Of a stretch of 64,000 nt of DNA, positions 1 to 63,650 are shown piece after piece. This DNA is from an uncultured Caldithrix sp. (lineage in GTDB: Bacteria; Electryoneota; AABM5-125-24; Hatepunaeales; Hatepunaeaceae). How positions within the stretch are numbered: position 1 is the first letter of the stretch; each line of letters opens with the position of its first letter. The notes under the pieces were generated by a model, which worked only from the letters and a program-made list of their open reading frames with translations, made no database searches and was not told where the DNA came from. Both the position numbers and the translations under genes were made by a program. The stretch is from the NCBI GenBank assembly GCA_964355675.1, contig CAYHEC010000014.1, positions 1,110 through 65,109 of the forward strand, read 5' to 3'.

Positions 1-2
1 CT

Positions 3-2660
3 ATGCTCGATCAGTATGCGGCAATCAAAAGCAAGTTTGCCGACGCCATACTGTTTTACCGTATGGGAGATTTTTACGAGATGTTTTACGATGATGCGAA
101 AGCCGCCTCGGAGATTCTCGGTCTTCGTTTGACCTCCCGCGCACACGGCAAAGGCTCGAATGTTCCCCTTGCTGGATTCCCTTATCACCAACTCGATTCC
201 TACCTGAACAAGATGGTCGAAGCAGGTCGTCGCGTCGTTATTGTCGAGCAGGTCGAAGATCCTAAGAAAGCCAAAGGTCTGGTAAAACGAGACGTCGTCA
301 AGATTGTCACAGCCGGGACAAATCCCGCCATGATCGATAGCGACAATCCCAGATCAAGCCGGATTATCGGCTTAATTAAACATGATAGCCGCTGGGGACT
401 TGCCTGGGCAGACATAGGTTCAGGAGAATTTGCCGCCGGTGAATTCGACCATGCCGGCTTAAGAGAAGTTCTCGGACGCATCGATCCGATTGAGATTGTT
501 GTCCCTGCCGGTTCCCCGGAAATAGGGCCAACTCCTGCTGGAGGAAGCCTGCCCCAGGTGATTAGCAAGCAGGAAGATTGGATATGGGAGACCGCATTTG
601 CAAATCGAACATTGCTCGATCATTTCGGAACGGTCGGCTTAAAGGGCTTCGGTATCGATGGGTTGCCTCTGGCGGTTTCTGCGGCGGGGGGCCTGCTATA
701 TTATCTCAAACAAAACCTCAAGAGCCACCCAGCTCACATTACCCGCTTGGCGCTGGAAGAAGCAGGCGGCAAATTGCAGATGGAAAAGGCGATCCGGAAA
801 AATCTTGAGCTTGTCGATTCGCTTTCCGGTAATCATCGCGCCACTCTCTTTTCCTACTGCGACCGAAATGTAACCCAATCCGGAAGACGGCTTCTTCATA
901 ATAGATTGATTGAGCCACTGGCGAACAAAAATCTGATCGATGAACGGCTCGATGCCGTAGCAGAGCTTGTACAGAAGAAAAACCTTCGTGATAAAGTTCG
1001 AGTCCAACTTCGCGAGGCGGGAGATCTGAGTCGCGGATTGGCACGATTGGCCACCGGTCGTGGATCAGCGCGAGATTTGGTTGCTCTACGGGAAACACTG
1101 GCTCTCTTGCCCAAGATTCAAGCAACGTGTGGCTCATCAGACTCACCACTCACCCAATGCTGGGTGAGCCGAATTGCTCTCCTGCCAGAATTGGCTGAAA
1201 AACTTAAAGTGGCGTTGTTGGATGATCCTCCGCTTGCCACCAATGAGGGTGGAATGATTCGAGCCGGGTACGATGCTCAAGTTGACGATTTGCGCGATAT
1301 CCGGTCGGGAGGACAATCATGGCTCGAGCAGTACGAGCGAACCCAACGAGCCGAGACCGGCATTTCCAACCTCAAGATCGCCTACAACCGGGTCTTTAAC
1401 TACTACATCGAGATCACCAAAAGCCACCTCGATAAGGCTCCAGCCACTTACATTCGCCGCCAGACGCTTGTTAATGCTGAGCGTTACACCACCCCTGAAC
1501 TTCAGGCTTACGAAGAAAAACTCATTTCTTCTGAAGAACTTGTCACAGCCCGCGAGTCTGAAATTTTCGCTGAATTGGCGAGTGAAACCCTTACTCATTC
1601 AAAATTAATTCAAGAAACCGCTCAAGCACTGGCCGAGATCGACTTCCTTTCCGGCTTGGCTCAACTTGCCGCTGAAGAGAATCTCCATCGACCAGAACTT
1701 GTGGAAGGGGACACTCTAATTCTTAAAGGCTCTCGCCACCCGGTCGTCGAAAAACTGTTGCCACCCGGGGAGTTGTTCGTTCCCAACGACCTGAACGTCG
1801 GCGGCGATTCTGCTCGCATTCTGATCATCACCGGTCCCAATATGGCAGGCAAGTCAACCTATCTCCGTCAAGTCGCCCTGACTGTAGTGATGGCGCAAGC
1901 CGGATCGTTTGTCCCAGCCGACAAGGCAGTGATCGGCGTCGTCGATAAACTATTCACTCGCATCGGCGCGATGGATAACCTTGCCGGAGGGGAGTCAACC
2001 TTCCTTGTCGAGATGCAAGAGACTGCCTCGATCCTGAACAACGCCACCCGCCGGTCACTGGTGCTATTCGATGAAGTCGGCCGAGGCACTTCGACCTTCG
2101 ACGGACTCAGCCTTGCCTGGGCGATTGTCGAATATCTGCACGAGACCGACCGGCTCAAACCCCGCACTCTTTTCGCCACCCACTTCCACGAAATGGTCGA
2201 TCTGGAGAACATCCTTGCCGGGGTGAAGAACTTCAACGTCGCGGTCCGGGAGGTGGGGGATAAGATAGTCTTCTTGAGGAAGATTGTCCCGGGAGGCTCT
2301 GACCACAGCTTTGGAATTCACGTTGCCCAGATGGCGGGCATTCCCGCTGAGGTGACCAGCCGGGCACGCGAAATTCTTGCCAACCTTGAAGCCAACGACT
2401 TAAATCCAGTTGCCGCCGATCCCGTAGGACGGGCGTCCCTGCCCGTCGATTCAGGAGGATGGGCGTCCCTGTCCGTCGAGGAGGATTCTCCTCGCTCTCG
2501 CCGTCGCTCACCGCAGAAGCACATCGCGCAGTTGTCGTTCTTCGATCCGATTGAGCGCAGGCTTCGTGACCGGCTGGAGGGCGTCGATCCCGACAAGCTG
2601 ACCCCGCTCGAGGCGCTGAAGCTGGTAGTAGAACTGAAGAAATTAGATGGGGGCGCGTAG
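3..2660 (+). CDS. mutS: DNA mismatch repair protein MutS (N-terminus cut by window edge)
   Basis: 885-aa ORF entering from the window edge. Mismatch-binding motif GDFYEMF, Walker A GPNMAGKST, MutS signature STFLVEMQE/DEVGRGTSTFDG. Two in-frame hairpin-repeat copies lie at 2424-2477 in the C-terminal linker. Confidence 0.97.
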   Translation: MLDQYAAIKSKFADAILFYRMGDFYEMFYDDAKAASEILGLRLTSRAHGKGSNVPLAGFPYHQLDSYLNKMVEAGRRVVIVEQVEDPKKAKGLVKRDVVKIVTAGTNPAMIDSDNPRSSRIIGLIKHDSRWGLAWADIGSGEFAAGEFDHAGLREVLGRIDPIEIVVPAGSPEIGPTPAGGSLPQVISKQEDWIWETAFANRTLLDHFGTVGLKGFGIDGLPLAVSAAGGLLYYLKQNLKSHPAHITRLALEEAGGKLQMEKAIRKNLELVDSLSGNHRATLFSYCDRNVTQSGRRLLHNRLIEPLANKNLIDERLDAVAELVQKKNLRDKVRVQLREAGDLSRGLARLATGRGSARDLVALRETLALLPKIQATCGSSDSPLTQCWVSRIALLPELAEKLKVALLDDPPLATNEGGMIRAGYDAQVDDLRDIRSGGQSWLEQYERTQRAETGISNLKIAYNRVFNYYIEITKSHLDKAPATYIRRQTLVNAERYTTPELQAYEEKLISSEELVTARESEIFAELASETLTHSKLIQETAQALAEIDFLSGLAQLAAEENLHRPELVEGDTLILKGSRHPVVEKLLPPGELFVPNDLNVGGDSARILIITGPNMAGKSTYLRQVALTVVMAQAGSFVPADKAVIGVVDKLFTRIGAMDNLAGGESTFLVEMQETASILNNATRRSLVLFDEVGRGTSTFDGLSLAWAIVEYLHETDRLKPRTLFATHFHEMVDLENILAGVKNFNVAVREVGDKIVFLRKIVPGGSDHSFGIHVAQMAGIPAEVTSRAREILANLEANDLNPVAADPVGRASLPVDSGGWASLSVEEDSPRSRRRSPQKHIAQLSFFDPIERRLRDRLEGVDPDKLTPLEALKLVVELKKLDGGA

Positions 2661-4202: not shown

Positions 4203-4765
4203 GGGCCGGTTTACCGAGCCCAACTCTCGCGCAGGGCCGGTTTACCGAGCCCAACTCTCGCGTAGGGGCCGGTTTACCGAGCCCAACAAATCCCCCTCCG
4301 TAGGTCGGGCCGCCGAGCCCGACAACCGGTACGACAGACTTTAGTCTGTCACCTTATTCTTTTTGGATTGGGCGATAGCGAGCATCATTCTGTTTGGATC
4401 GGGCGATGGCGAGCATCGCCCGTACGGGCGAACCTTGTGTTCGCCCTCTCTATTTACGCGGCAATCCCCGTACAACAGGCGTCCCCGCCTGTCTCCTCAT
4501 CATCCCGGCGCACACCGGTAAGGCCGACAGTTGTCGGCCTCCCAATTTCTAAAAGGCAGGGCGGATAGTTATCCGCCTCGGCGCTAAAGGCGCGCCATCT
4601 CCCCCCGCTTGCGGGGTGCGACTCCATTGAATGGAGTCGCGAAAAGGATGCACTTGAAATGGTTTCGTTCAAAGGGGGGTGTCATAAGCTGTCAACCCTC
4701 TGGGGTTGACATCGGCCGGAGGCTCCGCCGTCACCGCCCTGTCGGTGACGGTACTGCGGGGCTCC
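4197..4765. repeat. About 570-bp ORF-free stack of roughly 17 consecutive GC-rich hairpins of different sequence
   Basis: Three copies of GTAGGGGCCGGTTTACCGAGCCCAAC (4199-4287). GTAG-GTCGGGC..GCCCGAC (4300-4323). GTAC-GACAGAC-ttta-GTCTGTC (4329-4351). GGGCGATG..CATCGCCC-GTAC-GGGCGAAC..GTTCGCCC (4401-4447). GTAC-AACAGGCGTCCCCGCCTGT (4469-4492). GGCCGACAgtTGTCGGCC (4522-4539). GCGGATAgtTATCCGC (4561-4576). CCCCGCTTGCGGGG (4603-4616). GCGACTCCATtgaATGGAGTCGC (4618-4640). GTCAACCCtctgGGGTTGAC (4691-4710). CCGTCACCG..CGGTGACGG (4728-4751). Confidence 0.85.
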
Positions 4766-5137: not shown

Positions 5138-6193
5138 TCAGATGAATCTCAACTGGAAGTTGTTCGAATGAGCTTCTTCAATCAGTTTATTATATAGTTG
5201 TCGTTGACTCGCAGATAGATTTATCACGTTAAAACCGAGAGCAGTTGACAGTTTAAGTACCGGAATTACTGCATATTCTCTATGACCGATGAACACGCAG
5301 TGAAGATTTGTAAAAAGCACCATTTTAATAATGCCGTCCTTAATGTCATCCTCTGACGGCATGGCTCCATGCTTTGTGTGTTTTGCTTCAATAAGCCTAA
5401 CGTCAGAACCTGTGATTTCACATTCATCTAATGTCAGGCTATATTCACCTCCGAGATAGTTGATCACTGTGATCGATGCCTTTTGACCTTCCACAGATTC
5501 TTTGGGTTGAAGAGTCACTATTTCACGCTGTTGTGCGCTACGAGCAAGAAATCTGGATCTTGCAAGAAAAGTCTCACGGCTCATATAAATCTCTTCAAGT
5601 TTACGCACGGCGGATTTTCTGTTGTGCATTGAGATTCCTAAACTGGCCCCAATTCTATCGTAGAATTGAAGAGATTTTTGGCATACCGATTCCAAGCGAT
5701 TTGGATCGGTCTGCTCAATATTCCAATGCAGTGCATCAGACTGGCAATCCATTAGATTGGATAGTTGTTGACGGATATATTCCATATTGAATTGCTGATG
5801 AGATATTTTCCCTTGATATCGAGTGCTTGCGATTGCGTTGTCATAGTATGCAATGATAACGTTCACGCCGAGCAAACTCATCAAGCAAATTGTATCCCAT
5901 TGGAGGAAATCCCGATCACCTTCTCCACCTTCGTCTTTCATAACGGGGATTATTGTGACCTTCTTCCCTGTAAAACCGTAAGTGTTGTATACGCGAGCAT
6001 ACGGATAAGAGCGGGTTCTTTTCGGTGATACCCACCTACTTACCGCAATTTTCCCTTTTACTCCAAAATCGAGAAGAAACGATGCATCTCGCGATTCGAA
6101 GGCCTGCACCATTGACTCAATGAGATAGGTGTGTAGATCGTTACACATCAAAGGACGATATATAACACTCTTAATTTTGCCCGTAACTTCCAT
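5138..6193 (-). CDS. Putative type II restriction endonuclease (PD-(D/E)xK)
   Basis: The start is placed at the internal ATG 6193 (MEVTGK...), which has GGAGG 9 nt upstream and overlaps the methyltransferase 3' end by 23 nt. C-terminal motif LDECEI...VRLIEAKH fits D-Xn-E-x-K. AT-rich like its partner. Confidence 0.6.
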   Translation of the reverse strand: MEVTGKIKSVIYRPLMCNDLHTYLIESMVQAFESRDASFLLDFGVKGKIAVSRWVSPKRTRSYPYARVYNTYGFTGKKVTIIPVMKDEGGEGDRDFLQWDTICLMSLLGVNVIIAYYDNAIASTRYQGKISHQQFNMEYIRQQLSNLMDCQSDALHWNIEQTDPNRLESVCQKSLQFYDRIGASLGISMHNRKSAVRKLEEIYMSRETFLARSRFLARSAQQREIVTLQPKESVEGQKASITVINYLGGEYSLTLDECEITGSDVRLIEAKHTKHGAMPSEDDIKDGIIKMVLFTNLHCVFIGHREYAVIPVLKLSTALGFNVINLSASQRQLYNKLIEEAHSNNFQLRFI

Positions 6194-7082
6194 GTCGGAT
6201 ATCCTCCAGTAAAGATTTAAACTGTTCTTTCGACAACCTCCTATCCAAATCACGAGACAGGTCTCGCGTTCTCACGTCAACGGCGAAAAAATCGCTGTTA
6301 CTCATTAGATCAGGCAAACCGACTTTCTTTCGAATTATTTCTTGAAGTTCCGATTTTATTTCAAATCCGACACTATTACGTCCGAGCAAACGTGCTACTT
6401 TCATCGTAGTTCCGCTTCCTGCAAATGGATCTAGAACTATTTCTCCAGTATATGAGTAGAGCTTTATTAGGCGATAGGGCAACTCTTCCGGAAATGCTGC
6501 TACGTTTTTCTCTAGAACAGCTCCAGGAAGCACGTTTGTCATTTCCCAGAGAGTCATGTACCATTTTTTCTGTTGGAATTCTGCTTTATCTATCATAGAT
6601 GATATGCGGACATCCTGCGGAATAGACTTGTATTCGAATTTTCCCTTTTGAAAAATAATTATACTCTCCAGCAGATTATCTGGATAAAAGTACATCGGAT
6701 AGGGATTTTGGAGAATAACTCCACTTCTGCGACTAATCCGAAGATAACCGTCTGGCTTCTTCCATATAAGCCTATCCCTGTAACGAAAGCCTGCTCGCTG
6801 AAAAATTTTCGTTGCATCAGCAGTGATTGGGAATTTCTCTCCTTTTACTAACATATCATCGATATTAAGAGCTACGATCCGTCCGGGCTGTAACACCCGA
6901 TAGACCTCTTGCGCTACATTGTACAAGACTTCTAAATAATGGTCATACGTATCATACAGTCCCTCGTAATCGAAAGGAGCATTGAAGTACGGCGGAGATG
7001 TGACCATCAAATGCACGCTCTCGTTTTCAAGCTCTTGCATTGACTGACAATCACCGATAATCAATTTATGTGATGTTCCCAA
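6171..7082 (-). CDS. Beta-class N4/N6 DNA methyltransferase (SPPY type, possibly m4C)
   Basis: 303 aa. Motif IV TSPPY is near the N-terminus and motif I DPFAGSGTT near the C-terminus (beta-class order). TTG start with AGGAAA upstream. Confidence 0.85.
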   Translation of the reverse strand: MGTSHKLIIGDCQSMQELENESVHLMVTSPPYFNAPFDYEGLYDTYDHYLEVLYNVAQEVYRVLQPGRIVALNIDDMLVKGEKFPITADATKIFQRAGFRYRDRLIWKKPDGYLRISRRSGVILQNPYPMYFYPDNLLESIIIFQKGKFEYKSIPQDVRISSMIDKAEFQQKKWYMTLWEMTNVLPGAVLEKNVAAFPEELPYRLIKLYSYTGEIVLDPFAGSGTTMKVARLLGRNSVGFEIKSELQEIIRKKVGLPDLMSNSDFFAVDVRTRDLSRDLDRRLSKEQFKSLLEDIRHGSYGQN

Positions 7083-7889: not shown

Positions 7890-10658
7890 ATGTCCGAAAT
7901 TCCAAAGAGCTACGATCCGACCTCCGTCGAGCCGAAGTGGTACAAATTCTGGGAAGAGAACGACCTCTTCCGCACCGATCCGAACTCCGGCAAGGAGCCG
8001 TACTGCATCATGATGCCTCCGCCGAACGTCACCGGCGAACTTCACATGGGGCACGGCTTGCAAGACTCCCTGCAGGATATGCTGATCCGCATGAAGCGGA
8101 TGCAGGGCTTCGAGGCGCACTGGCAAGCCGGAACCGATCACGCCGGCATCGCTACCCAGAACGTCGTCGAGAAAGCGCTCGCCAAGGAAGGCGTGTCGCG
8201 CCACAGCCTCGGCCGGGAGAAGTTCATCGAGAAGGTCTGGGAGTGGAAAGCCAAGTACGGGGACAGGATACTCCAGCAGAAGCGGCTCTTAGGTGACTCG
8301 CCGGACTGGAGCCGCGAACGGTTCACCTTCGATCCGGGGCTTTCCAAAGCCGTGGCGAAGGTGTTCGTGCATCTCTATGACAAGGGGCTGGTGTATCGGG
8401 GGAATTACATCGTCAACTGGTGTCCGCGCTGTCACACGGCGATCTCTGACGAGGAAGTCGATCATAAGGACGAAGCGACGCATTTGTGGTATTTCAGGTA
8501 TCCGATTTTAAATGATTCTTCCGTCGCCGCCCCGTCGGCGATGGATACTGATACACCTGCTGCCACCCACAGGGGGGTGGCAGAAGAGGGACACTACGTG
8601 ACTGTGGCGACGACGCGCCCTGAGACGATGCTGGGCGATACGGCGGTGGCGATCAATCCCAAAGACGAACGATTGCAGCATCTTCGCGGGAGGAGCGTGC
8701 AGCTCCCATTGGTGGATAGAGTTATCCCGATCATTGAAGACGAGTTCGTCGATCCGGCTTTTGGGACGGGGCAGGTGAAAGTGACGCCTGCTCATGATCC
8801 GAACGACTTTGAGATGGGGAAGCGCCACAGCCTCGGATCCATCACAGTGATGGACGAGCATGGGGTAATGAATGATAACGCTGGTCGTTTCAAAGGATTG
8901 GATAGGTTCAAGGCGCGTGAGGCGATTGTGGAGGCGATGGGGGAGGCGGGGTTGTTGGAGAAGATAGAGGATTATACTACCTCCATTGGCCACTGCTCGC
9001 GGTGCAAGACGGTCATCGAGCCGTACCTCTCTCTGCAGTGGTTCGTGAAGATGAAGCCACTCGCCGAGCCTGCCCTTGAGGCTGTTCGTGACGGGCGGAT
9101 CAAGTTCTATCCGGGACGTTGGGAGAAGGTCTATTACTCATGGCTGGAGAACGTGCGGGACTGGTGCATCTCGCGGCAGCTTTGGTGGGGGCATCGGATA
9201 CCGGTGTGGTACTGCCAGGCTTGCGGGGAGGTGATTGTCAGGGAAGAGGAGCCTGATACTTGTCCGAAGTGCCACTCGAACAGTCTCAGGCAGGATGAGG
9301 ATGTGCTCGATACGTGGTTTAGTAGCTGGCTCTGGCCATTTTCAACCTTGGGGTGGCCCGAAGAGACGCCTGAGCTTAAAAAATGGTATCCGACGCAGTT
9401 GCTCGTTTCGGGCTATGACATCATCTTCTTCTGGATCGCGCGGATGATTATGGCGGGGCTGGAATTCATGGGCGACATCCCGTTCAGCGACATCTTCATT
9501 ACGGGCATGATTAAGGACGAGCAGGGGCGGTGGATGTCGAAGTCGCTCGGCAATGGCATCGACCCGGAGGCGATGGTCAAGCAGTACGGGGCCGACGCGG
9601 TGCGGTTCACTATGATAACGCTGGCGACGGAGGGGCAGGACATCAAGCTAACGCCGTCGCGGTTTGAGGGAGGGAGGAATTTTGCCAATAAACTGTGGAA
9701 TGCGTACCGGTTTCTGATGACTCATGTGGAGAAACTGCCTGAGGAAAATAGGAGCCAAATTGGCAAGTATCCAATCACTGAGATGCCTTCCGATGCTCCC
9801 CTCGTGGATCGGTGGATTGTCTCACGACTGGCGGCGACGGTCGAACAGGTTCATGCGTCGGCGGAGAAGTACCGGTTGTTTGAGTGTCTTAACGCCCAGT
9901 ATGATTTCCTCTGGAAGGAGTTCTGTGACTGGTATCTGGAGCTTATTAAAAACCGGTTGACGCCTGAGACTCCGGCATTTGACCGTCAGTTGACGCTTGA
10001 GGTCGCGTTGCAGGTATTCGAAGCGGCGATGCGGCTGTTGCATCCGGCGATGCCGTTTGTGACGGAAGAGATTTGGCAGGGAGTTTCAGCACAAGTAGCG
10101 TTGACAATTGTCAACGCTACTGCAACTCAGAAGTCGATTATGGTGGCGGAATATCCGAAGCCGGGGGAATATCCAAGGGACTTGAAGGCTGAGGAGCAGA
10201 TCGAGTTGTTCCAGCGTGTCGTTGCGGCAGTCAGGAACATTCGTGGCGAAATGCATGTTCCACCCGACCGGAGGGCAGTACTGGTAGTGTCGGGCGTGAA
10301 AGATGAAGGGAAGAAGATGTTATTTGAGCGGCTGTCAAGTGATATTTGTCGTCTCGCAAACTTGTCGGAAATCAGCTTTGGCAACTCTCGCCCGGCACAC
10401 TCAGCTTCGGCAATGATAGATGATTTCGAGCTGTTTGTGCCGTTGGAAGGCTTGATCGACATCACGGTAGAACAAGGGAGACTCGACAAGGAGATTGCGA
10501 GACTTGAAGGCTCGATCAAAGGCGCTGAGGCAAGGCTTGCTTCGCCAAACTTCACTGACAAGGCTCCGGCGAATGTGGTGGAGTTTGAGCGGCAGAAGTT
10601 GGTGGAGTCGAAGGCACAGCTTGAGGCGGTGAAAAGGAATAGGGAGGCGTTGGAATGA
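7890..10658 (+). CDS. valS: Valine--tRNA ligase
   Basis: 922 aa. HIGH motif (PPNVTGELHMGH), KMSKS motif (WMSKSLGN), ValRS segment ATTRPETMLGDTAV, C-terminal coiled coil. Carries an in-frame hairpin-containing insertion at about 8520-8600. Confidence 0.97.
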   Translation: MSEIPKSYDPTSVEPKWYKFWEENDLFRTDPNSGKEPYCIMMPPPNVTGELHMGHGLQDSLQDMLIRMKRMQGFEAHWQAGTDHAGIATQNVVEKALAKEGVSRHSLGREKFIEKVWEWKAKYGDRILQQKRLLGDSPDWSRERFTFDPGLSKAVAKVFVHLYDKGLVYRGNYIVNWCPRCHTAISDEEVDHKDEATHLWYFRYPILNDSSVAAPSAMDTDTPAATHRGVAEEGHYVTVATTRPETMLGDTAVAINPKDERLQHLRGRSVQLPLVDRVIPIIEDEFVDPAFGTGQVKVTPAHDPNDFEMGKRHSLGSITVMDEHGVMNDNAGRFKGLDRFKAREAIVEAMGEAGLLEKIEDYTTSIGHCSRCKTVIEPYLSLQWFVKMKPLAEPALEAVRDGRIKFYPGRWEKVYYSWLENVRDWCISRQLWWGHRIPVWYCQACGEVIVREEEPDTCPKCHSNSLRQDEDVLDTWFSSWLWPFSTLGWPEETPELKKWYPTQLLVSGYDIIFFWIARMIMAGLEFMGDIPFSDIFITGMIKDEQGRWMSKSLGNGIDPEAMVKQYGADAVRFTMITLATEGQDIKLTPSRFEGGRNFANKLWNAYRFLMTHVEKLPEENRSQIGKYPITEMPSDAPLVDRWIVSRLAATVEQVHASAEKYRLFECLNAQYDFLWKEFCDWYLELIKNRLTPETPAFDRQLTLEVALQVFEAAMRLLHPAMPFVTEEIWQGVSAQVALTIVNATATQKSIMVAEYPKPGEYPRDLKAEEQIELFQRVVAAVRNIRGEMHVPPDRRAVLVVSGVKDEGKKMLFERLSSDICRLANLSEISFGNSRPAHSASAMIDDFELFVPLEGLIDITVEQGRLDKEIARLEGSIKGAEARLASPNFTDKAPANVVEFERQKLVESKAQLEAVKRNREALE

Positions 10659-12271
10659 TTATGCCAGAACTTCAAACAAATGTCCTCTACTACGGGGATA
10701 ATCTTGAGGTCTTGAGAGATCAAATTCCTAATGAATCAATTGATCTCATATACCTTGACCCTCCGTTCAATTCTAAGCAGTCATACAGTGTCCTATTCCG
10801 CGAATCGTCGGGAGCTGCAAGTGAAGCTCAAATCGAAGCATTCGAGGATACTTGGCAATGGACTATAGACGGCCAGGCACCCAAAGCCTACGACGCTATC
10901 ATGACCGGGCCGAGGCAGGACGTTGCGAGCTTGTTAGGCGCTATGGTGCAAGGACTTGGTCGCAATCAAGTTACATCCTATCTCTGCATGATGACGGTCA
11001 GACTGGTGGAACTGCACCGTGTTCTGAAAGCGACGGGGAGCCTTTACCTTCATTGTGATCCAACCGCTGGAGCCTATCTTCGAGTTATTCTCGACGCGAT
11101 TTTTGAGCCAGTCAACTTTCGCAACGAGATCATTTGGAAGCGAACATCGGCTCACAACGACCCAAGGAAATACGGAGCGAATATTGACGTAATCTGGTAT
11201 TACGTGAAGAGTAGTAAGAACACTTGGAATGATGTTTTCACTGAGCATCGTGAAGAGTATCTCAAGCGATTCACTCATAGAGACTCAGATGGTCGAGCAT
11301 GGCAAGACGGCCCGCTGACAGCAAAGGGACTGACTGGCGGAGGATATACCTATGAGTATAAAGGTATTAAAGGATTCTGGCGCTGTCCTCTGGCAACAAT
11401 GGAAAGGTATGACAAAGAAGGGCTCTTGCACATCACAAATAGGAATGGAATACGGATAAAGCGCTATCTTGATGAAACTGAAGGTGTGATACTTCAATCA
11501 CTCTGGACAGACATCCCACCTGTAAATTCACAAGCTAAGGAGCGATTGGGTTACAATACTCAAAAGCCTCAAGCCTTGCTCGAGAGAATAGTTTCAGTTT
11601 CATCCAATCCCGGTGATATCGTCCTTGATCCATTTTGCGGTTGTGGTACCGCACTTCACGCCGCCCACAAGCTTGACCGTAAATGGATAGGAATTGACGT
11701 AACTTATCTCGCAATCAACCTTATCGAACGAAGAATGCGTGATGCTTTTCCTGGCGTCCCGATTCATGTCGATGGTGCTCCAGCTGATACAGCCAGTGCT
11801 CACGATCTTGCTCGCAGAGACAAGTATCAATTTCAATGGTGGGCACTCGCCAAGATCGACGCTCAACCAGTATCAGGCAAGAAGAAAAAGGGTGCGGACA
11901 AGGGCAAAGACGGAGTTATTCCTGTTTTTATGGATGCTGAAATCAGTTATAGGAACGCGATAGTTTCCGTTAAGGGCGGCGCAGATCGCGACGTAAGTGA
12001 TATAAGGGACTTGAACGGAACTATGTTGAGAGAAAACACACCGTTTGGTGTTCTTATTACGTTGTTTCCGCCAACCAAACCAATGATAACTGAAGCGGCA
12101 TCGGCGGGACTCTATGAAAGTGAATTCTGGGGTAGAAAATTTCCTAGGATTCAAATTCTATCAGTCGAAGAGATCTTTCAAGGGAAACGTCCGAATCTTC
12201 CCAAAGGCAAATCGCCTTATGCAAAAGCTCCGGTTGAAAAAACGGTCAATGGAAATCTCAATTTAGATTGA
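10655..12271 (+). CDS. Beta-class DNA methyltransferase fused to a C-terminal Mrr-like PD-(D/E)xK domain
   Basis: 538 aa. Motif IV LDPPF (N-terminal) and motif I DPFCGCGTA. The C-terminal ~150 aa carry GADKGKDGVI...VSVKGG, resembling the Mrr catalytic core (D-G-x-D ... x-K). The start ATG overlaps the valS TGA (ATGA). Confidence 0.7.
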   Translation: MIMPELQTNVLYYGDNLEVLRDQIPNESIDLIYLDPPFNSKQSYSVLFRESSGAASEAQIEAFEDTWQWTIDGQAPKAYDAIMTGPRQDVASLLGAMVQGLGRNQVTSYLCMMTVRLVELHRVLKATGSLYLHCDPTAGAYLRVILDAIFEPVNFRNEIIWKRTSAHNDPRKYGANIDVIWYYVKSSKNTWNDVFTEHREEYLKRFTHRDSDGRAWQDGPLTAKGLTGGGYTYEYKGIKGFWRCPLATMERYDKEGLLHITNRNGIRIKRYLDETEGVILQSLWTDIPPVNSQAKERLGYNTQKPQALLERIVSVSSNPGDIVLDPFCGCGTALHAAHKLDRKWIGIDVTYLAINLIERRMRDAFPGVPIHVDGAPADTASAHDLARRDKYQFQWWALAKIDAQPVSGKKKKGADKGKDGVIPVFMDAEISYRNAIVSVKGGADRDVSDIRDLNGTMLRENTPFGVLITLFPPTKPMITEAASAGLYESEFWGRKFPRIQILSVEEIFQGKRPNLPKGKSPYAKAPVEKTVNGNLNLD

Positions 12272-12692: not shown

Positions 12693-12980
12693 ATGTTGGA
12701 AGGGGCGATCCTTTTCGGTCAGGATCTTATCAGCGCCTACCCCAACCCCTTCAACGACAGAGCGACGATCCGCATCAACCTGCCCTCCTCAGCGCCGATG
12801 CAACTGGTGCTGTTTGACCTCTCGGGAAGGCGGTTCGGGGAGTGGAATTTGTCTGCTCAGTTGCCAGAGAGTCAAAGTCGGTTTATATTAGATGGGAACA
12901 CGTTGCCGTCAGGGGCGTTTTATTTGAAAGCGTCGTCGGGGGAACGTTCGGAGTGCTTGCCGATGATGCATTTGAAGTAA
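12693..12980 (+). CDS. Stand-alone T9SS-type C-terminal sorting domain ORF (possible gene remnant)
   Basis: 95 aa consisting only of a Por/T9SS CTD-like sequence (AYPNPFNDRATIRINL...LPSGAFYLKASSG). No signal peptide and no cargo domain. Confidence 0.4.
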   Translation: MLEGAILFGQDLISAYPNPFNDRATIRINLPSSAPMQLVLFDLSGRRFGEWNLSAQLPESQSRFILDGNTLPSGAFYLKASSGERSECLPMMHLK

Positions 12981-13001
12981 GTGCGATACGTGCAAGAACG
13001 T

Positions 13002-13245
13002 GGGGGCTCGTAAACGGCCCCTACGCGACGAAGGGAGGGCATGTAAACGGGAGGGCTCGTAAACGGCCCCTACGCGACGAAGGGAGGGCATGTAAACGGG
13101 AGGGCATGTAAACGGAGGGCACGTAAACGGCCCCTACGCGACGAAGGGAGGGCATGTAAACGGGGGGCTCGTAAACGGGGGGCACGTAAACGGCCCCTAC
13201 GCGGGATGACGAATAGAGGGGGGGCTCGTAAACGGCCCCTACGCG
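13002..13245 (+). repeat. Tandem array of family-A repeats (GGGGCTCGTAAACGGCCCCTACGCG and truncated variants)
   Basis: About ten GTAAACGG cores in 244 bp. The full unit is a bulged hairpin GGGGC(T)CG-TAAA-CG-GCCCC followed by CTAC (a GTAG head on the other strand). Confidence 0.9.
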
Positions 13246-13269: not shown

Positions 13270-14652
13270 ATGGTACCAATGCCAACAAAACTATCACTTG
13301 CGTCAGCGCTTCTGCTAAGCTCCATTTTCCATTTTCCATCTTCCATTAAAGCCGAAGTCGCCGTTACCATTTACAACCAGAACCTCGCCCTCGTCCGCGA
13401 GGTGCGCCAGCTTGACTTCCCCAAGGGCGTCGGCCAACTCCGCTTCACCGACGTCGCGTCGGAGATTATCCCGACGTCAGTGCACTTCACCAGCGACAAA
13501 GCCGCACTCCTCGAGCAAAACTACGAGTACGACCTCGTGAGTTCGGACAAACTGCTCGAGAAATACATCGATCAACGGGTGGAGATTGTTTCGCTTGACG
13601 GCAAGAGCTTTTTCGGGTCGTTACTATCGTCGGGAGGGGATATTGTGCTAAGGTTAGATGGTGGGACACCCCCCCCTGCCCCCCCCGCAAGCGGGGGGGG
13701 AAAGTCTGGCGAATTGGTCTCGATTACCCGTTCGCAGGTTGCCAATGTCCGGTTCCCTGAGCTACCGGAAGGACTCATCACCCGCCCGACACTAGTCTGG
13801 CTGGTCGATGGCAAGGGCGGCAAGAGCGACGCTGACATCTCCTACCTGACGAGAGGAATCTCGTGGGAATCGGAGTATGTTGCCGTCTCGGACGTAAAGG
13901 ACGAAAACCTCTCACTGACCGGGTGGGTGAACATTACGAATAATTCCGGGGCGACGTACAAGGATGCGCGGTTGAAACTGATGGCAGGGGACGTGAATAT
14001 CGAACAGCCTCGAAGAAAATTCGCACGCGACGAAGTTCAAGAATTGTCAGGCGGATTTAATGCTGAATACGGTTTTCAAGAACAAGCGTTTTACGAGTAC
14101 CACCTCTATACCCTTCAGCGTCCCTCGACCATCGCCGACAAGCAGGTGAAGCAAGTGTCGCTGTTTCCGACGGCTTCAACGCCGGTGAAGAAGGAATTCC
14201 GACTCAAGGCGAACGAGGAAAAGGTTACAGTTGTCCTTGAGTTTGAAAACCGTGAGAAGGTCGGGCTGGGCATACCGCTTCCCAAGGGGAAGGTGCGGGT
14301 CTATAAGCAGGGTCCTGATGGCGGGCAGGAATTCATCGGCGAAGACAACATCGACCATACTCCCAAGGATGAAAAAGTCCGCATCACGACCGGTAAAGCG
14401 TTTGATATTGTTGGCGAGCGGAAATCGATCAACTACGAGCGCCAAGGCAAACAGCGTGAGAATGAGATTGTCGTCCGCAATCATAAGAAGGAGACCATCG
14501 AGGTTGTCATCGAAGACTCGTTCTGGGGGGATTGGAAATTTATCGAAGCGACCGACGGCTGGGAGAAGAAGAATGCCAGCCTCGTTGAGTGGAAAGTGAA
14601 GATCAAGCCGGACGGGGAGGCGAAGGTTAGGTATAAGGTTTATGTTAATTAA
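13270..14652 (+). CDS. Secreted DUF4139/DUF4140-like protein
   Basis: 460 aa with a signal peptide. VTIYNQNLALVRE...LEQNYEYDLVS resembles the DUF4139 family (from memory). The internal low-complexity patch GGTPPPAPPASGGGKSG is encoded by a hairpin repeat at 13681-13698. Confidence 0.55.
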   Translation: MVPMPTKLSLASALLLSSIFHFPSSIKAEVAVTIYNQNLALVREVRQLDFPKGVGQLRFTDVASEIIPTSVHFTSDKAALLEQNYEYDLVSSDKLLEKYIDQRVEIVSLDGKSFFGSLLSSGGDIVLRLDGGTPPPAPPASGGGKSGELVSITRSQVANVRFPELPEGLITRPTLVWLVDGKGGKSDADISYLTRGISWESEYVAVSDVKDENLSLTGWVNITNNSGATYKDARLKLMAGDVNIEQPRRKFARDEVQELSGGFNAEYGFQEQAFYEYHLYTLQRPSTIADKQVKQVSLFPTASTPVKKEFRLKANEEKVTVVLEFENREKVGLGIPLPKGKVRVYKQGPDGGQEFIGEDNIDHTPKDEKVRITTGKAFDIVGERKSINYERQGKQRENEIVVRNHKKETIEVVIEDSFWGDWKFIEATDGWEKKNASLVEWKVKIKPDGEAKVRYKVYVN

Positions 14653-16412: not shown

Positions 16413-16681
16413 GGGGGCTCGTAAACCGGCCCCTACGCGGATGATTGGTTGGTGGTGCATGGCCGGGGCTCGTAAACGGCCCCTACGCGGGTGATTGGTT
16501 GGTGGTGCATGGCGGGGGCTCGTAAACGGACGGGGCTCGTAAACGGACGGGCTCGTAAACGGACGGGCTCGTAAACGGCCCCTACGCGGGTGGCACGTAG
16601 ACAGACGGGGCTCGTAAACGGCCCCTACGCGGATGATTGGTTGGTGGTGTATGGCCGGGGCTCGTAAACGGCCCCTACGCG
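16413..16681 (+). repeat. Second tandem array of family-A repeats
   Basis: About nine GGGGCTCGTAAACGG(CCCCTACGCG) units in the same orientation as the 13002-13245 array, interspersed with a repeated spacer GATGATTGGTTGGTGGTGCATGGCC. Confidence 0.9.
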
Positions 16682-16734: not shown

Positions 16735-18933
16735 ATGGCAAAATCTAACAACATAGGTGTCAACGGCAGAGCGTTGACAGCTTCCGGGGTCACTGCCACC
16801 CGCAGGGGGGTGGCAGAAGTTCCTGCATCTTCCGTCACCCCCCCGCGGGTGACGGACAAACTCAAATGGAACGACCCCGTCGCTCTGGTAAAAGGGCTTG
16901 GCGAACAGCGCGCCGAATTCCTTGTCTCGCAAGGATATGCCACCATCGGCGATTTGCTGATGCGTGCACCGCTTCGCTACATCGACCGCCGACAATCGCC
17001 ACCATTTTCCACGTTGACGACGCCTTCCGCTGGTGAGATCAGCGCCGTCGGCGTCATCGAAGCAGTCGGCGAGAAAGGGTTCGGTCGAAAAAGGCGACTG
17101 ATCTGCATTATTTCGGATGGGACGGGAATCGTGCAAGGGGTCTGGTTCAAGAATTATCATTTTTACAAGCCGGAATTGACTCCGGGTCGAAAGATTGCCT
17201 TGAGTGGCAGGATTACCATATTCGACGGTCCGCAGATCACTCACCCGAAGGTGACTTACCTTGACGGTGACCGGAATCTGCCTGGTGAAGCGTCGCTGGT
17301 GCCGGTCTATCCTTCGGGTGATGAGTGGGAGAAAGCCGGACTTTCCAAGCAAGTGTGGCCCCGATTGATCGCCAAAGTCATTAAAGATTGGGATGGAGAA
17401 GGTCCGTACCTGCCGGAGAATATCCGTGGTCTCTGCAAATACCCGACACTCCGCGATGCGGTTACTGCATTACATCAACCCAACGGGCTTGAGGATTTCG
17501 ACCGGGGTCTGGAGGCGCTGAAATTCACTGAGCTTTATCATCATCAATTGCTAATGGTTGTTTTGCGCAGGCGAAGAAGGCAGGGCGATGGAATTGTCAT
17601 CGGGTCGCAAGGCGAAAGATTTCCCTTATTCTTGAGACAATTACCGTTTGAACTCTCGCCGAGTCAACAGGAAGTGTTGGGTGAGATTAGTGAAGACTTC
17701 TGCTCGGGTCACCCCATGCATCGATTGTTGCAGGGGGAAGTCGGGTCGGGGAAGACTGTGGTCGCGCTGGCGGCGGCGGTTCATTCGGCTGATTCAGGCT
17801 ATCAGACTGCCATGATGGCTCCGACGGAAATACTTGCCCGGCAACACTATAAGAACGCAATCGAGTATTGCGAACCGGTCGGGATGAAAGCCGTCATGAT
17901 CAGCGGGGGGCGAGACGCCGACGAAAACCGACGAGCGCTTTTCGAGGCGTCGGTCGGTAAGGCTGATATTATTATCGGCACGCATGCCCTGTTTCAAGCT
18001 CGCGTCGAAATGCCTCGCCTCGGTTTGGCGGTGATCGACGAGCAACATCGGTTTGGAGTTCGGCAACGAGCGTTGCTGGTTGGCAAGGGAGTGCGGCCGC
18101 ACGTCCTGTTAATGTCGGCGACGCCTATTCCGAGGACGTTAGCGCTGGCTCATTACGGGGATCTTGAGTTGTCATTTCTGAAGCCTCCCCCCGGCATCGA
18201 AAGGCGCGTAAAAACACGTATCGTCAATGATTCGCGTCGTGATAAAGTATTCGGTTGGTTAAAGGAAGAATTGAAGAAGGGGCGTCAGGGATTTCTCGTT
18301 TTTCCAGTGATCGACGAAAGCGCAACCGGTCTTGAAGCCGCTGAAGCTCGTTATATTCCGTACAGTACGATCGACTTCAAAGGAATTCCGACGGCGCTTA
18401 TTCATGGGCGGATGCCGATCGATGAGCGGGTTAGGGTGATGGATTCGTTCCGTAGGGGGGATGTGAAGCTACTGATGACGACTTCGGTGATCGAAGTCGG
18501 AGTTGACGTGGCGGAAGCAACGATTATGGTTATCGAAAACGGCGAGCGGTTCGGGTTGTCCCAGCTTCATCAACTTCGTGGAAGAGTAGGAAGATCGGGC
18601 AGAACGGGAACGTGTGTAATTATCTCTTCGGAACGAGAGGGGCAGACAGGATTCGAACGAATCCGTAAACTCGAGACGACTTCTGACGGGTTAGAGCTTG
18701 CTGAGGAGGATCTGAGGCAAAGAGGGGCGGGTGACCCGCTTGGAGCGCGACAGAGTGGCTGGGTAAAATTCAAGCTTGCCGATCTGACAATGGATTACAA
18801 ATTATTAGAAAAGGCGCACCTTTCAGCGCTGGAAACGCTGGATACATGGCCAGACCTCGAACCCTTCCCAGAGATAAGAGCCAAATTGAAGCAGGAATAT
18901 CGCAATAGACCGAAGACGATGTTGGCGGGGTGA
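16735..18933 (+). CDS. recG: ATP-dependent DNA helicase RecG
   Basis: Walker A GEVGSGKT, DEQH box VIDEQHRFG, motif VI HQLRGRVGRSG. The first 38 codons are built from three hairpin repeats, so an alternative GTG start at 16849 is plausible. Confidence 0.93.
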   Translation: MAKSNNIGVNGRALTASGVTATRRGVAEVPASSVTPPRVTDKLKWNDPVALVKGLGEQRAEFLVSQGYATIGDLLMRAPLRYIDRRQSPPFSTLTTPSAGEISAVGVIEAVGEKGFGRKRRLICIISDGTGIVQGVWFKNYHFYKPELTPGRKIALSGRITIFDGPQITHPKVTYLDGDRNLPGEASLVPVYPSGDEWEKAGLSKQVWPRLIAKVIKDWDGEGPYLPENIRGLCKYPTLRDAVTALHQPNGLEDFDRGLEALKFTELYHHQLLMVVLRRRRRQGDGIVIGSQGERFPLFLRQLPFELSPSQQEVLGEISEDFCSGHPMHRLLQGEVGSGKTVVALAAAVHSADSGYQTAMMAPTEILARQHYKNAIEYCEPVGMKAVMISGGRDADENRRALFEASVGKADIIIGTHALFQARVEMPRLGLAVIDEQHRFGVRQRALLVGKGVRPHVLLMSATPIPRTLALAHYGDLELSFLKPPPGIERRVKTRIVNDSRRDKVFGWLKEELKKGRQGFLVFPVIDESATGLEAAEARYIPYSTIDFKGIPTALIHGRMPIDERVRVMDSFRRGDVKLLMTTSVIEVGVDVAEATIMVIENGERFGLSQLHQLRGRVGRSGRTGTCVIISSEREGQTGFERIRKLETTSDGLELAEEDLRQRGAGDPLGARQSGWVKFKLADLTMDYKLLEKAHLSALETLDTWPDLEPFPEIRAKLKQEYRNRPKTMLAG

Positions 18934-20098: not shown

Positions 20099-20347
20099 AT
20101 GATCGGTAGCGCAGCGATTTATCGCGCTCATATTGAGATTGGGACGATAGGCGCGATAAATCGCTGCGCTACCAGCACACCCATAGGCGCGATAAATCGC
20201 TGTGCTACCAGCACTCATAAGCGCGATAAATCGCTGCGCTACCAGCACTCATAGGCGCGATAAATCGTTGTGCTACCAGCACACCCATAGGCGCGATAAA
20301 TCGCTGTGCTACCAGCACCCATAGGCGCGATAAATCGCTGTGCTACC
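20099..20347. repeat. Family-E repeat array (GTAGCGCAGCGATTTATCGCGCC)
   Basis: One forward copy (ATGATCGGTAGCGCAGCGATTTATCGCGC), a 19-nt spacer, then six reverse copies (ATAGGCGCGATAAATCGCTGYGCTACCAGCAC) with a 34-37 bp period. Confidence 0.9.
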
Positions 20348-20445
20348 AGTCAAAAATGTCACAGAAATGTATGGATGCCGGCTTTCGCCGGTATGAGAGC
20401 ATTTCGGGTATATTTCACTTTCTCGGACAGTCTCGAATGTCAGGT

Positions 20446-44573: not shown

Positions 44574-44692
44574 GCCGATTCAAATCGGCGGTATTAACGA
44601 AGAAGAATTCAGCACTGCCGATTCAAATCGGTGGTACTAACGAAGAAGAATTCAGTACTGCCGATTTAAATCGGCAGTACTAACGAAGAAAA
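44574..44692 (+). repeat. 43-bp tandem repeat (2.8 copies) filling the murC-murB gap
   Basis: The unit GCCGATTCAAATCGGCGGTATTAACGAAGAAGAATTCAGCACT occurs at 44574, 44617 and 44660. The last copy forms a 28-nt perfect palindrome AGTACTGCCGATTTAAATCGGCAGTACT. Confidence 0.92.
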
Positions 44693-44694
44693 CA

Positions 44695-45705
44695 ATGTCA
44701 AATCTGCTCACGGCAAAGGATCTTGCCGACTATAAACTGATTGGCGAACTGAAACTTAGGATTGAGAAAGAGACCGATAGTCGTTGCCTGATCGATGAAT
44801 CGCTTGCCAAGCATACATCGTGGAGAGTCGGCGGTCCGGCAAGATTGTATGCCTACCCGTCATCGGGTATGGCGCTTGCAAATTTGATTCAATTTTGTAA
44901 CTTCGAAAGACTGGCATTTTTTACAATCGGATATGGAACGAACTTGCTGGTTTCAGACGATGGATTTGCGGGGTGCGTGATCGACCTTGCGGAAGGCGCC
45001 CGAAATATCTCAGTGGGGCGGACAACTGTCCGCCCTACCGCCCCGGACGAAGAACTGAGTGCTGGCGGGGGAGCCTGGCTGGGGGAGGTGGTGCGGATAG
45101 CGGCTGAACACGGGCTTAGCGGAATGGAAAGACTTGCCGGGATACCCGGCGGTGTTGGCGGGGGGATGTCGATGAACGCGGGGGCGTTTGGAATGTCGAT
45201 ATCAGATTGTCTGGTGGAGGCAACGGTAGTCGATAAGAACGGTGTGACAACGGTTATAAAGAAAGATGACGTTGGTTTTGGGTATCGTAGCGCACCAGGA
45301 ATTGCTGGAAAAACGGTTACAGAAACAATTTTCCACCTGAAAAAAGAGCACAAGAGCAGGATTATTCGCACAGTAGAATCGACAATTACTGATCGATTTC
45401 GCCGTAACGTGATGACTTTACCATCGGCGGGGAGCGTCTTCAAGAACCCAATCGGAGGCTTTTCCGCGAAAATGGTCGAAGCTGTAGGCGGAAAAGGGTT
45501 AAGGGAAGGGGGCGTCGAAGTATCGCAGTTGCACGGCAATTTTATCGTCAACACAGGCGCTGGGAATGCATCGGACATCGTGAAGCTCATTAATCGAATT
45601 AGGTCGATGGTTCGCGAACGCTTTGATGTATCGCTCGAGTTGGAAGTGAGAACGCTCGGCTTTGTCGGCGACATTCTCGAAGATTATAAAACCAAGGTTA
45701 TCTAA
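44695..45705 (+). CDS. murB: UDP-N-acetylenolpyruvoylglucosamine reductase
   Basis: FAD-binding PCMH-type N-terminus (GGPARLY, GYGTNLLV), GIPGGVGGGMSMNAGAFG, SAGSVFKNP. Carries an in-frame hairpin repeat at 45021-45048. Confidence 0.94.
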   Translation: MSNLLTAKDLADYKLIGELKLRIEKETDSRCLIDESLAKHTSWRVGGPARLYAYPSSGMALANLIQFCNFERLAFFTIGYGTNLLVSDDGFAGCVIDLAEGARNISVGRTTVRPTAPDEELSAGGGAWLGEVVRIAAEHGLSGMERLAGIPGGVGGGMSMNAGAFGMSISDCLVEATVVDKNGVTTVIKKDDVGFGYRSAPGIAGKTVTETIFHLKKEHKSRIIRTVESTITDRFRRNVMTLPSAGSVFKNPIGGFSAKMVEAVGGKGLREGGVEVSQLHGNFIVNTGAGNASDIVKLINRIRSMVRERFDVSLELEVRTLGFVGDILEDYKTKVI

Positions 45706-48101: not shown

Positions 48102-48257
48102 TGTCAGTGTTGGTGTGACACAACACGAAGGTATTAGGGCAACAAGCCCGAAGTTTGACACCATGAGCGGCTCACATAGAGATTCGAGGCACAACTATCG
48201 ACAAGATAGCGTTATGAAAAATTGTCAAAATCATAAAATTTCTGGAGAAAGAAGGAA

Positions 48258-55825: not shown

Positions 55826-56806
55826 GTGACCTTCGCCGTTCAAATAGAGAACTTCACTCGCTCCTACGGAGACGTTCAGGCAGCCAAAGAGTTGACTTTT
55901 TCGGTCAGGGAGGGCGAATTATTCGGCTTAATCGGCCCTGATGGTGCGGGTAAAACCACAACGATGCGAGCATTATGCGGGCTCATCACGCGGGACAGCG
56001 GCACAATGTCGATCTTCGGGATCGATCCGGAAGGATACCCTCGCAAAGTTCGTGAGTTAATCGGCTACATGCCTCAACGGTTCAGCCTCTATCCCGACCT
56101 GACCGTCGCTGAAAATTTGCGTTTCTTCGCCGATCTTTATCTTGTGCCGACGGATGAACGCCAACGCCGCGAGGAACGGCTCATGCGATTCTCCCGACTT
56201 GGTCCCTTTCGCGACCGACGAGCCTTGCAATTATCCGGCGGAATGAAGCAAAAGCTCGCCCTCTCCTGTACCCTGATTCATACTCCCAGACTGCTGATAC
56301 TTGACGAACCGACCACAGGCGTCGATCCGGTCAGCCGGCGGGAATTCTGGTCAATACTGAAAGAACTGTCTGCGGAGGGCATCTCAATTGTCGTTTCAAC
56401 GCCCTACATGGACGAGGCTCTTCTTTGCGACCGGACAGCGCTGATGCACAAAGGAAAAACGTTAGTGGTCGGGACTCCATCACAGATCACTGAGCTTTAT
56501 CCCCACATCCTCATCGAGGCAACGGCTGAGAATCTTCAGGATATCCGACAGAAGTTGATCGCCTCAGGAATTGACTCAAATCATTTACATCGATTTGGCG
56601 GCAGACTCCATATCGCCTGCAACAATCCCGGGGAGGCTGAACGAGTATCCACGTTAGTACGAGAGGCTGGCGGACAAGCGTCAAGGGCGTCGCCATCCAT
56701 CGAAGACACTTTTGTGGCAATAGTCGGTAAGCTTGATGATGAAAACCGCGCAGTGGGGCGGACAACTGTCCGCCCCACTGATGACCAAATGGCTTCCTTG
56801 CCGTAA
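55826..56806 (+). CDS. ABC transporter ATP-binding protein (YbhF-like half 1)
   Basis: GPDGAGKTT, LSGGMKQKL, LILDEPT. The C-terminal tail (..AVGRTTVRPTDDQMASLP) is encoded by repeat hairpins. Confidence 0.9.
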   Translation: MTFAVQIENFTRSYGDVQAAKELTFSVREGELFGLIGPDGAGKTTTMRALCGLITRDSGTMSIFGIDPEGYPRKVRELIGYMPQRFSLYPDLTVAENLRFFADLYLVPTDERQRREERLMRFSRLGPFRDRRALQLSGGMKQKLALSCTLIHTPRLLILDEPTTGVDPVSRREFWSILKELSAEGISIVVSTPYMDEALLCDRTALMHKGKTLVVGTPSQITELYPHILIEATAENLQDIRQKLIASGIDSNHLHRFGGRLHIACNNPGEAERVSTLVREAGGQASRASPSIEDTFVAIVGKLDDENRAVGRTTVRPTDDQMASLP

Positions 56807-63365: not shown

Positions 63366-63405
63366 TACAAAAACTGAACCCGGCAAACTTTAATATTGTG
63401 GTACT

Positions 63406-63606: not shown

Positions 63607-63650
63607 AAGATTAGATCACACAGGCTAAAACTCTCAAAGGAATAAATAAA

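Follow-up and report, generated by a model that had tools for sequence, protein, structure and literature searches.

How does a palindromic DNA repeat come to be read as protein in the middle of a conserved housekeeping enzyme? The question is raised by valS, the gene for valyl-tRNA synthetase (ValRS), in a 64-kb stretch of contig CAYHEC010000014.1 from an uncultured Caldithrix sp. (the window, 64,000 nucleotides), where two short hairpins lie in frame at a position, here called site 1, that is without an insert in most other ValRS genes. By its ValRS, this uncultured host falls together with metagenome-assembled genomes (MAGs) of Calditrichota and Ca. Hatepunaea. The insert most probably consists of selfish palindromes resembling repetitive extragenic palindromic (REP) sequences, held in a permissive loop and drawn from families that are scattered through a hairpin-rich genome.

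The open reading frame (ORF) of valS is intact, and its translation carries the HIGH-type motif PNVTGELHMGH, the KMSKS-type motif WMSKSLGN and the editing block ATTRPETMLGD. Full-length similarity to the Thermus thermophilus enzyme (PDB 1GAX, E = 2.8e-239), these motifs, the Pfam domains tRNA-synt_1, Anticodon_1 and Val_tRNA-synt_C, and an AlphaFold2 model built on a 60-sequence alignment (mean predicted local distance difference test score, pLDDT, 90.2; predicted TM-score 0.83) place the protein in class Ia. Compared with the majority of 60 homologues, the best 60 of 8000 hits, the enzyme has 24 additional residues (aa 208-231) in columns that are gapped in at least 70% of the sequences, the majority state being YP(L/I)K-DSDEF-VTVATTRPET. 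The original prediction, made from the letters of the sequence, had put the surplus at about 20 residues; the insertion itself stands, whereas its size has to be corrected upwards. A HMMER local alignment to 1GAX is interrupted at the same place (query residues 3-206, then 226-921). Orthologues delimit the insertion, as had been proposed, since 64 of the 74 loci compared, from many phyla, have 45-47 aa from the zinc-knuckle motif WCP to TTRPET, and the window has 70 aa (the 74 being the valS loci of GTDB species genomes in which both anchors were found).

Two hairpins had been claimed for this segment, at 8524-8541 and 8560-8583, and both can be read directly from the DNA. The first, with the core TCGCCG-ccccgt-CGGCGA, extends further than proposed, to 8520-8545 (hairpin B), and the second (hairpin A) pairs perfectly over 9 bp around a 6-nt loop. 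Both have the general REP shape, in which an imperfect palindrome measuring 20-40 bp folds into a G+C-rich stem of 6-13 bp that is closed by a short loop. Folded as RNA, the 83-nt insert region forms the two hairpins at -39.6 kcal/mol (z = -3.8; 0 of 200 shuffles as stable), and four other 83-nt pieces of valS, folded as controls, gave z = -0.2 to -0.5. The segment is in all likelihood an in-frame insertion of one B unit (about 29-30 nt) and one A unit (27 nt), 14 nt apart (Table 1). An intein, an intron and translational bypass were dropped as candidates, as the segment is 75 nt long, in frame, and free of stop codons and of splicing motifs.

Table 1. Features of the valS insert and of translated or related hairpins elsewhere in the window.
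Feature	Position	Strand	Description
valS	7890..10658	+	Intact ORF, 922-aa class Ia valyl-tRNA synthetase
Site-1 in-frame insertion	~8511..8585	+	~75 nt, ~24-25 aa, NDSSVAAPSAMDTDTPAATHRGVA(E); boundaries good to 1-2 codons
Hairpin B	8520..8545	+	TCCGTCGCCG-ccccgt-CGGCGATGGA; 10-bp stem with one G:T, 6-nt loop
Spacer between hairpins B and A	8546..8559	+	14 nt, TACTGATACACCTG; reads ..TDTP..
Hairpin A unit	8560..8586	+	27 nt, CTGCCACCC-acaggg-GGGTGGCAG-AAG; reads AATHRGVAE
Site-1 junction sequences			..CCGATT(TTA) on the 5' side, ..GGACACTACGTG on the 3' side
Site-1 loop peptide segment			SAMDTDTPAATHR
Site-2 in-frame hairpin, valS	10094..10121	+	AGTAGCGTTGAC-aatt-GTCAACGCTACT; perfect 12-bp stem; reads VALTIVNAT
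recG N-terminal extension hairpins	16755..16856	+	16755-16782 (TGTCAACG type), 16793-16819 (A copy), 16828-16856 (B copy)
Intergenic relative of hairpin B	4728..4751	+	CCGTCACCG-ccctgt-CGGTGACGG; looser B-like hairpin
DUF4139 gene hairpin	13677..13702	+	C-run/G-run; reads PPPAPPASGGG
murB hairpin, another family	45013..45038	+	GTGGGGCGGAC-aact-GTCCGCCCTAC; reads VGRTTVRPT
ABC ATPase hairpin, murB family	56751..56780	+	Near-identical copy near C-terminus, same frame (VGRTTVRPT)

Both units have copies at recG. When three mismatches are allowed, the palindrome of hairpin A has exactly one further match in the window, at 16793-16816, with A changed to G in the loop, and none of 100 shuffled sequences had two matches. 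By BLAST the shared unit is 27 nt long (8560-8586 and 16793-16819) and identical at 26 of 27 positions. The second copy lies in the ORF 16735..18933 and reads TATRRGVAE, in the same frame as AATHRGVAE in valS, a recurrence that the original prediction had already noticed. Hairpin B, taken with its TCT head (8517), resembles both 16828-16856 and 4728-4751, the stem changes being paired and compensating. The BLAST match of this stretch to 16828-16845 (16/18, E = 4.1) is not significant alone, and the recG copy of B is called, as a diverged one, on shared architecture; it too is read in the frame of its valS counterpart. Unit A is thus present twice and B-like hairpins three times within the 64 kb, and together with their relatives they form a loose group, C(Y)G(Y)CACC(S)-N6-(S)GGTG(R)C(R)G, whose stems differ by paired changes (ACCC/GGGT, GCCG/CGGC, ACCG/CGGT). 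No exact match to the hairpin including its loop was found in 185,579 species genomes. The stem with any loop was found in JGI metagenomes as 72 single, unrelated hairpins, which we count as chance or terminator-like occurrences because none has an ACAGGG or GCAGGG loop; the genome studied here is thus taken to be absent from that collection.

The three recG hairpins come after the annotated ATG (16735) and before the first conserved residues, so that the shared frame in recG hinges on the annotated start, which has the support of an ATG conserved in three relatives only. This ATG is preceded by a conserved hairpin and CTTTATTATCTT in the window and in two relatives, and the recG genes of three relatives have different hairpin-rich extensions that all stay in frame. 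The conserved ATG and the open frames of the relatives' extensions suggest, rather than prove, that the N-terminal extension is translated. The spacing between A and B is exactly 14 nt at both loci, in the order B-A in valS (8520-8583) and A-B in recG (16793-16856); each hairpin has the same orientation at both loci, the two spacers are unrelated, and pairing is also possible in recG between the 3' arm of A and the 5' arm of B. An origin of the site-1 pair as an inverted copy of the recG doublet, which the equal 14-nt spacing might suggest, is rejected, since each loop points the same way at both loci, the two hairpins have changed places without turning round, and their spacers are unrelated.

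The valS hairpins are part of a heavy load of such structures. Perfect hairpins whose stem is 8 bp or longer number 44 in the window (2-9 in dinucleotide shuffles), and there are 48 strong hairpins with at least 9 pairs and at most one mismatch (7.6 +/- 2.5 in shuffles). Strong hairpins are intergenic in 32 of the 48 cases, though only about 16% of the window is intergenic, an enrichment of about 18-fold in intergenic DNA; the remaining 16 are genic, against 5.8 +/- 2.2 expected. They fall into many families, several of which end in CTAC or GTAG and others of which start with CGTC or TGTC. In an Rfam search over the window no family matched any of the hairpins, the only matches being two tRNAs.

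Several of the genic hairpins behave like the valS insert. The murB hairpin coincides exactly with a 9-aa gap against the solved MurB structure 4PYT, and the C-run/G-run hairpin of the DUF4139 gene has a shorter version (APPASGG) in the 79%-identical relative and an empty site in the 73%-identical one. The filled and empty states of MurB and DUF4139 differ by exactly 9 aa (27 nt). In all three families with two coding copies (A, B and murB/ABC) both copies are read in the same frame, for which chance would give three pairs in 1 of 27 cases by frame alone, in what is a small sample. Stop codons are not the reason for the shared frames, because they interrupt just one of the frames that are not used.

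Neither of the findings that the original prediction had named as refuting it came up, as close relatives have unrelated sequence at site 1 and both hairpins have copies at another locus. The four closest orthologues (82, 79, 73 and 68% identical) carry 19-34 extra residues at this codon position, and their sequences are unrelated. Four of the six inserts in the clade fold significantly, namely that of the window, that of L003 (the 73% relative; z = -6.4), that of L079 (z = -9.1) and that of L083 (z = -3.4). The L003 insert is one long imperfect palindrome of about 73 nt bounded by TCCGGA, copies of which, 94-96% identical, recur in that locus, also at a second site in the L003 valS; L079 has a CACAGAG/CTCTGTG palindrome and L083 a C7/G7 hairpin. 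The L003 repeat ACCACGAAGACACAAAGGCACGAAG.. (read as TTKTQRHEE) occurs twice in valS, at 10626-10657 and 11838-11869 (site 1 and near aa 613), and again at 1403-1428 in a Proton_antipo-family gene at the start of that locus. Altogether 10 of the 74 loci have an insert at site 1, those outside the clade being in genomes of Planctomycetales (Planctomycetota), Omnitrophota and Bacteroidetes (Bacteroidota). The inserts of L120, L134, L140 and L146 are visibly short direct repeats (IPNPKSQIPN, SPGHQVT, SPSHQVTKSP and TKDEGRRTKD), and in L120, L140 and L144 a second copy of the insert sequence is present elsewhere in the same locus. Since inserts are present both in the clade and in other phyla, site 1 is an old and recurrent insertion hot spot.

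In the AlphaFold2 model the insert forms a coil (208-230) that connects two long antiparallel strands (190-207 and 231-241), in agreement with the surface loop of the CP1 (connective peptide 1) editing region that had been expected. From alignments to 1GAX over its full length and to 1WKA and 1WK9, which are constructs of the editing domain alone, we infer that the hairpin formed by these strands is the first beta-hairpin of the CP1 domain, about 13 residues into that construct, and that the insert is at its tip. The pLDDT falls below 50 in two segments only, aa 216-227 and aa 739-745, which are the two places where valS contains a hairpin, and the model suggests no ordered structure for the insert. 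The second of these places, site 2, is the linker that joins the anticodon-binding domain to the C-terminal coiled coil. The linker varies in length in all relatives, the T. thermophilus enzyme is gapped over aa 739-748 in the HMMER alignment, and the hairpin there folds with z = -5.9. The site-1 insert is therefore best described, as a prediction that is probably right, as a disordered, surface-exposed loop of about 24 residues that would be translated and neutral or nearly so, rather than a functional module.

How such units could have reached valS can be outlined as follows. From their copies in the window we infer that the units are mobile, and any enzyme that mobilises them is putative. 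They would spread as single-stranded hairpin DNA, through a REP-like system with a REP-associated tyrosine transposase (RAYT), through another trans-acting activity or through copy-and-paste repair. Most insertions into genes would be lost, and those that survive would be divisible by three in length, free of stop codons and situated in a permissive loop or at a terminus. Such a filter would explain sites 1 and 2 of ValRS, the MurB loop, the RecG N-terminus and the ABC ATPase C-terminus. Once expanded, a loop would be open to further insertions and replacements, and this turnover would explain the unrelated inserts found at the same codon position in close orthologues.

Several observations weigh against insertion by REP-like units. 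No target-site duplication was found flanking either of the site-1 hairpins, the sole short repeat being a possible TGAT ahead of each unit, of a length that does not allow scoring. No empty-site allele was found either, and the nearest database protein (82% identical) also bears an insert. Within the 64-kb window there are only 2-3 copies per family, and no transposase is annotated there or was found by Pfam among the unannotated ORFs; a Y1 transposase or RAYT is likewise absent from the called genes. Two inserts of the clade have no significant fold, a degenerate 'TEDTE...SVNSV' palindrome in L001 (z = -1.7) and the insert of L002 (z = +0.9), and not every insert is thus demonstrably palindromic. 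Low pLDDT at the insert is in part expected, because few members of the alignment have residues there, and the translation and neutrality of the loop are predictions.

Some of these points are shared by an explanation in which nothing moves, and which we consider unlikely. Hairpins could be made or homogenised in place by template switching in a variable loop combined with gene conversion, and the families would then reflect conversion instead of movement. The perfectly compensating differences between related stems fit this, as does the lack of both a transposase in the window and a target-site duplication, and site 1 is already expanded in all close relatives. A copy event is nevertheless required by the 27-nt unit, since two genes that are unrelated, lie 8 kb apart and have flanks unrelated to each other share it at 26 of 27 positions. 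The clean filled and empty sites of MurB and DUF4139, differing by exactly 9 aa, speak against an origin in place as well, and so does the intergenic enrichment of hairpins, which is as expected of spreading REPs.

It is very unlikely that the hairpin is instead kept for its effect in the mRNA, where a stem-loop at the boundary between the catalytic body and CP1 would slow ribosomes and aid co-translational folding or mRNA stability. The insert does lie at a domain boundary, and unrelated inserts at this one codon position fold strongly in four of the six clade members (z from -3.4 to -9.1). However, 64 of the 74 ValRS genes of relatives do without an insert, L001 and L002 have inserts that do not fold significantly, and the inserts of other phyla include runs of short direct repeats instead of palindromes. 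That some inserts are not palindromic and some are decayed argues against selection for an RNA hairpin as such. Moreover, unrelated genes carry the same hairpin families in their loops and termini, and intergenic DNA carries them far more often.

Insertions specific to one lineage can have a function in aminoacyl-tRNA synthetases, and the loop might on such grounds be an adaptive extension of ValRS, for instance for a new contact with tRNA or a partner, its palindromic DNA being incidental. This is highly improbable here. The loop is kept in every member of the closest clade, yet no sequence is conserved between orthologues that are 82% identical, the loop is predicted to be disordered, its DNA is shared with the 5' region of recG, and its amino acid composition is dictated by the hairpin (AATHRGVAE, SSVAAPSAMD). 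A chimeric or mis-assembled contig, or a pseudogene, can practically be dismissed: repeats often break or confuse metagenome assemblies, and contigs of other assemblies end near repeat clusters, but the same 2769-nt valS with an identical insert is found in three further assemblies from three different samples (ERZ4201063, ERZ4201064 and SRR24858484), which differ from the window by a single base at 9179, outside the insert and without effect on the protein, the ORF is intact with all its catalytic motifs, and the flanking DNA is colinear with that of relatives.

Insertion by REP-like palindromes, as the preferred reading, has its closest precedent in REPs tagged with GTAG or CGTC, which are also found inside genes (Di Nocera, De Gregorio and Rocco 2013, PMC3733652). 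More than half of the intragenic inserts in that survey are dimers or groups that encode 20-30 aa, and the host genes include those for isoleucyl-tRNA synthetase (ileS; ELI_13550, aa 467-488) and the glycyl-tRNA synthetase beta subunit (glyS), as well as many DNA-repair genes; its authors caution that N-terminal copies may be untranslated (PMC3733652). Such REPs are short G+C-rich stem-loops of several families per genome, mostly intergenic and often clustered, with a minority inside genes as singles or dimers of 20-30 aa. The hairpins of the window, as a class, resemble them, and the valS insert resembles the intragenic minority, with the size of a dimer. Hairpin B starts with CGTC (TCCGTC...), and other hairpins of the window have TGTC or GTAG/CTAC ends, as tagged REPs do. 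CGTC REP families 1-4 have a CGTC (or TGTC/CCTC) head, an 8-9 bp stem with A-T pairs at positions 1-2, a 4-5 nt loop and a CCA tail (PMC3733652). Hairpin B has this head and a stem of 8-10 bp, but also a 6-nt loop, a stem that starts with GC (AC in the recG copy) and no CCA tail, and its CGTC is paired within the stem; hairpin A starts with CTGCC. Judged by these features, the units are not members of families 1-4 and resemble the superfamily only. The host lineage is outside the phyla surveyed in PMC3733652. In REP/REPIN-RAYT systems the RAYT is an IS200/IS605-type tyrosine transposase whose gene is flanked by REPs. RAYTs typically occur as one copy per genome (PMC5581495).

In-frame palindromes in conserved genes were first described as Rickettsia palindromic elements (RPEs) by Ogata et al. 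2000, as cited in PMC2229807 and PMC10969869. RPEs are Rickettsia-specific repeats of 105-150 bp in several sequence families, each encoding a conserved peptide, and an RPE-bearing guanylate kinase is translated and active (PMC2229807). As with RPEs, the palindromes of the window are in frame within conserved housekeeping genes at positions compatible with the fold, and members of a family tend to share a reading frame. Unlike RPEs, the units measure 27-30 nt, the 75-nt insert combines two different units, and the sequences are unrelated; by size and sequence the valS insert is not an RPE. The original proposal of a mobile palindromic element tolerated inside ValRS, analogous to RPEs, is supported, with the caveats that the units are much shorter than RPEs and that mobility is a conclusion drawn from 2-3 copies. 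Other non-autonomous repeats with open frames, namely ERIC, the 107-bp Correia/NEMIS elements and YPAL, are also fused in frame to host ORFs (PMC2229807). The L003 insert, a single long imperfect palindrome of about 73 nt, is similar to a MITE. MITEs are 100-200 bp long with terminal inverted repeats and usually TA target duplications, features that were not found at 8511-8585, and the window insert is not counted among them. In the open-access literature, which is the literature covered, ValRS site 1 has not been reported as a repeat hot spot, nor have such elements been reported near Calditrichota or Ca. Hatepunaea. Translated repeats within genes are already known, and what is modestly novel is the recurrent, fast-turnover use of one ValRS loop across phyla.

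Because site 1 is an old and recurrent hot spot, the present insert may be nested in an older insert or may have replaced one. By eye, the spacer between the hairpins (..GATACTGATACACC.., read as DTDT) is faintly like the start of the L001 element (..ACTGAGGACAC.., read as TEDTE), and the 14 nt can tentatively be seen as a remnant of the older 'NTEDTE' element of the 82% orthologue. On this resemblance, a guess from a short match, A and B may have landed in the older element and largely replaced it. A wider proposal, which we regard as doubtful, is that site 1 and the linker before the coiled coil are preferred landing pads in which genome-specific repeats reinsert and replace each other in at least four phyla, faster than the protein diverges. 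The cause could be elements that home to existing hairpins, or a stable mRNA structure that is favoured at the domain boundary. If true, ValRS site 1 would serve as a natural record of repeat activity in uncultured lineages, one that can be dated.

The rest of the window is ordinary chromosome, with mutS, valS, recG, mutS2, der, the division cluster from mraZ to ftsZ, and ABC transporters. DNA-methyltransferase genes are situated on both sides of valS, at 5138-7082 (-) and 10655-12271 (+). The upstream N6_N4_Mtase gene overlaps a 351-aa ORF without a Pfam hit, possibly a restriction enzyme, and the downstream one encodes a 538-aa N6_N4_Mtase whose start overlaps the valS stop. As L002 and L003 lack both loci, restriction-modification genes appear to have been inserted on either side of valS.

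Further repeats are spread along the window. A REP with CTAC/GTAG ends (GGGGCTCGTAAACGGCCCC-TACGCG) forms clusters at 12984-13245 and 16413-16681, with 13 copies of a 20-nt core, on either side of the paired DUF4139 and Por_Secre_tail genes; an 89-aa gene called at 12842-13111, which runs into the first cluster, is probably spurious. Between ftsA and ftsZ, a 40-nt tandem array (47868-48108, 6 copies, 94% matches) is built on GGTAGCGCAGCGATTTATCGCGCC, as is a related 34-nt array at 20147-20349 (5.9 copies) that is inverted relative to it. Just downstream of mutS, an 8-nt tandem repeat (CACTTGCC and variants) runs through 11.4 copies at 2755-2845 and can be compared with the short direct-repeat runs translated at valS site 1 in other phyla. 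A 43-nt tandem repeat at 44574-44702 (2.7 copies) with the internal palindrome GCCGATTCAAATCGGC separates two ORFs that bear the provisional labels murC and murB. A perfect 39-nt inverted repeat (63405-63443 and 63569-63607) encloses two more REP hairpins, and the contig of L161, another assembly of the same organism, ends near this cluster.

These results extend the phenomenon of RPEs and intragenic REPs to an uncultured lineage whose ValRS is near those of Calditrichota and Ca. Hatepunaea MAGs, with translated hairpins in valS (two sites), murB, recG, the DUF4139 gene and the ABC ATPase gene, all within 64 kb. The ValRS loop at site 1 takes 8 to 34 extra residues in many lineages, which is useful for engineering tags or insertions. 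The odd site-1 peptides in metagenome proteins of relatives, such as PSPPL..SRGG, TEDTE..SVNSV, IPNPKSQ and SPSHQVTK, call for caution in annotation and alignment, the DNA of several of them being visibly short repeats. Finally, the complete turnover of the insert between orthologues that are 82% identical offers a way to time the activity of repeats.

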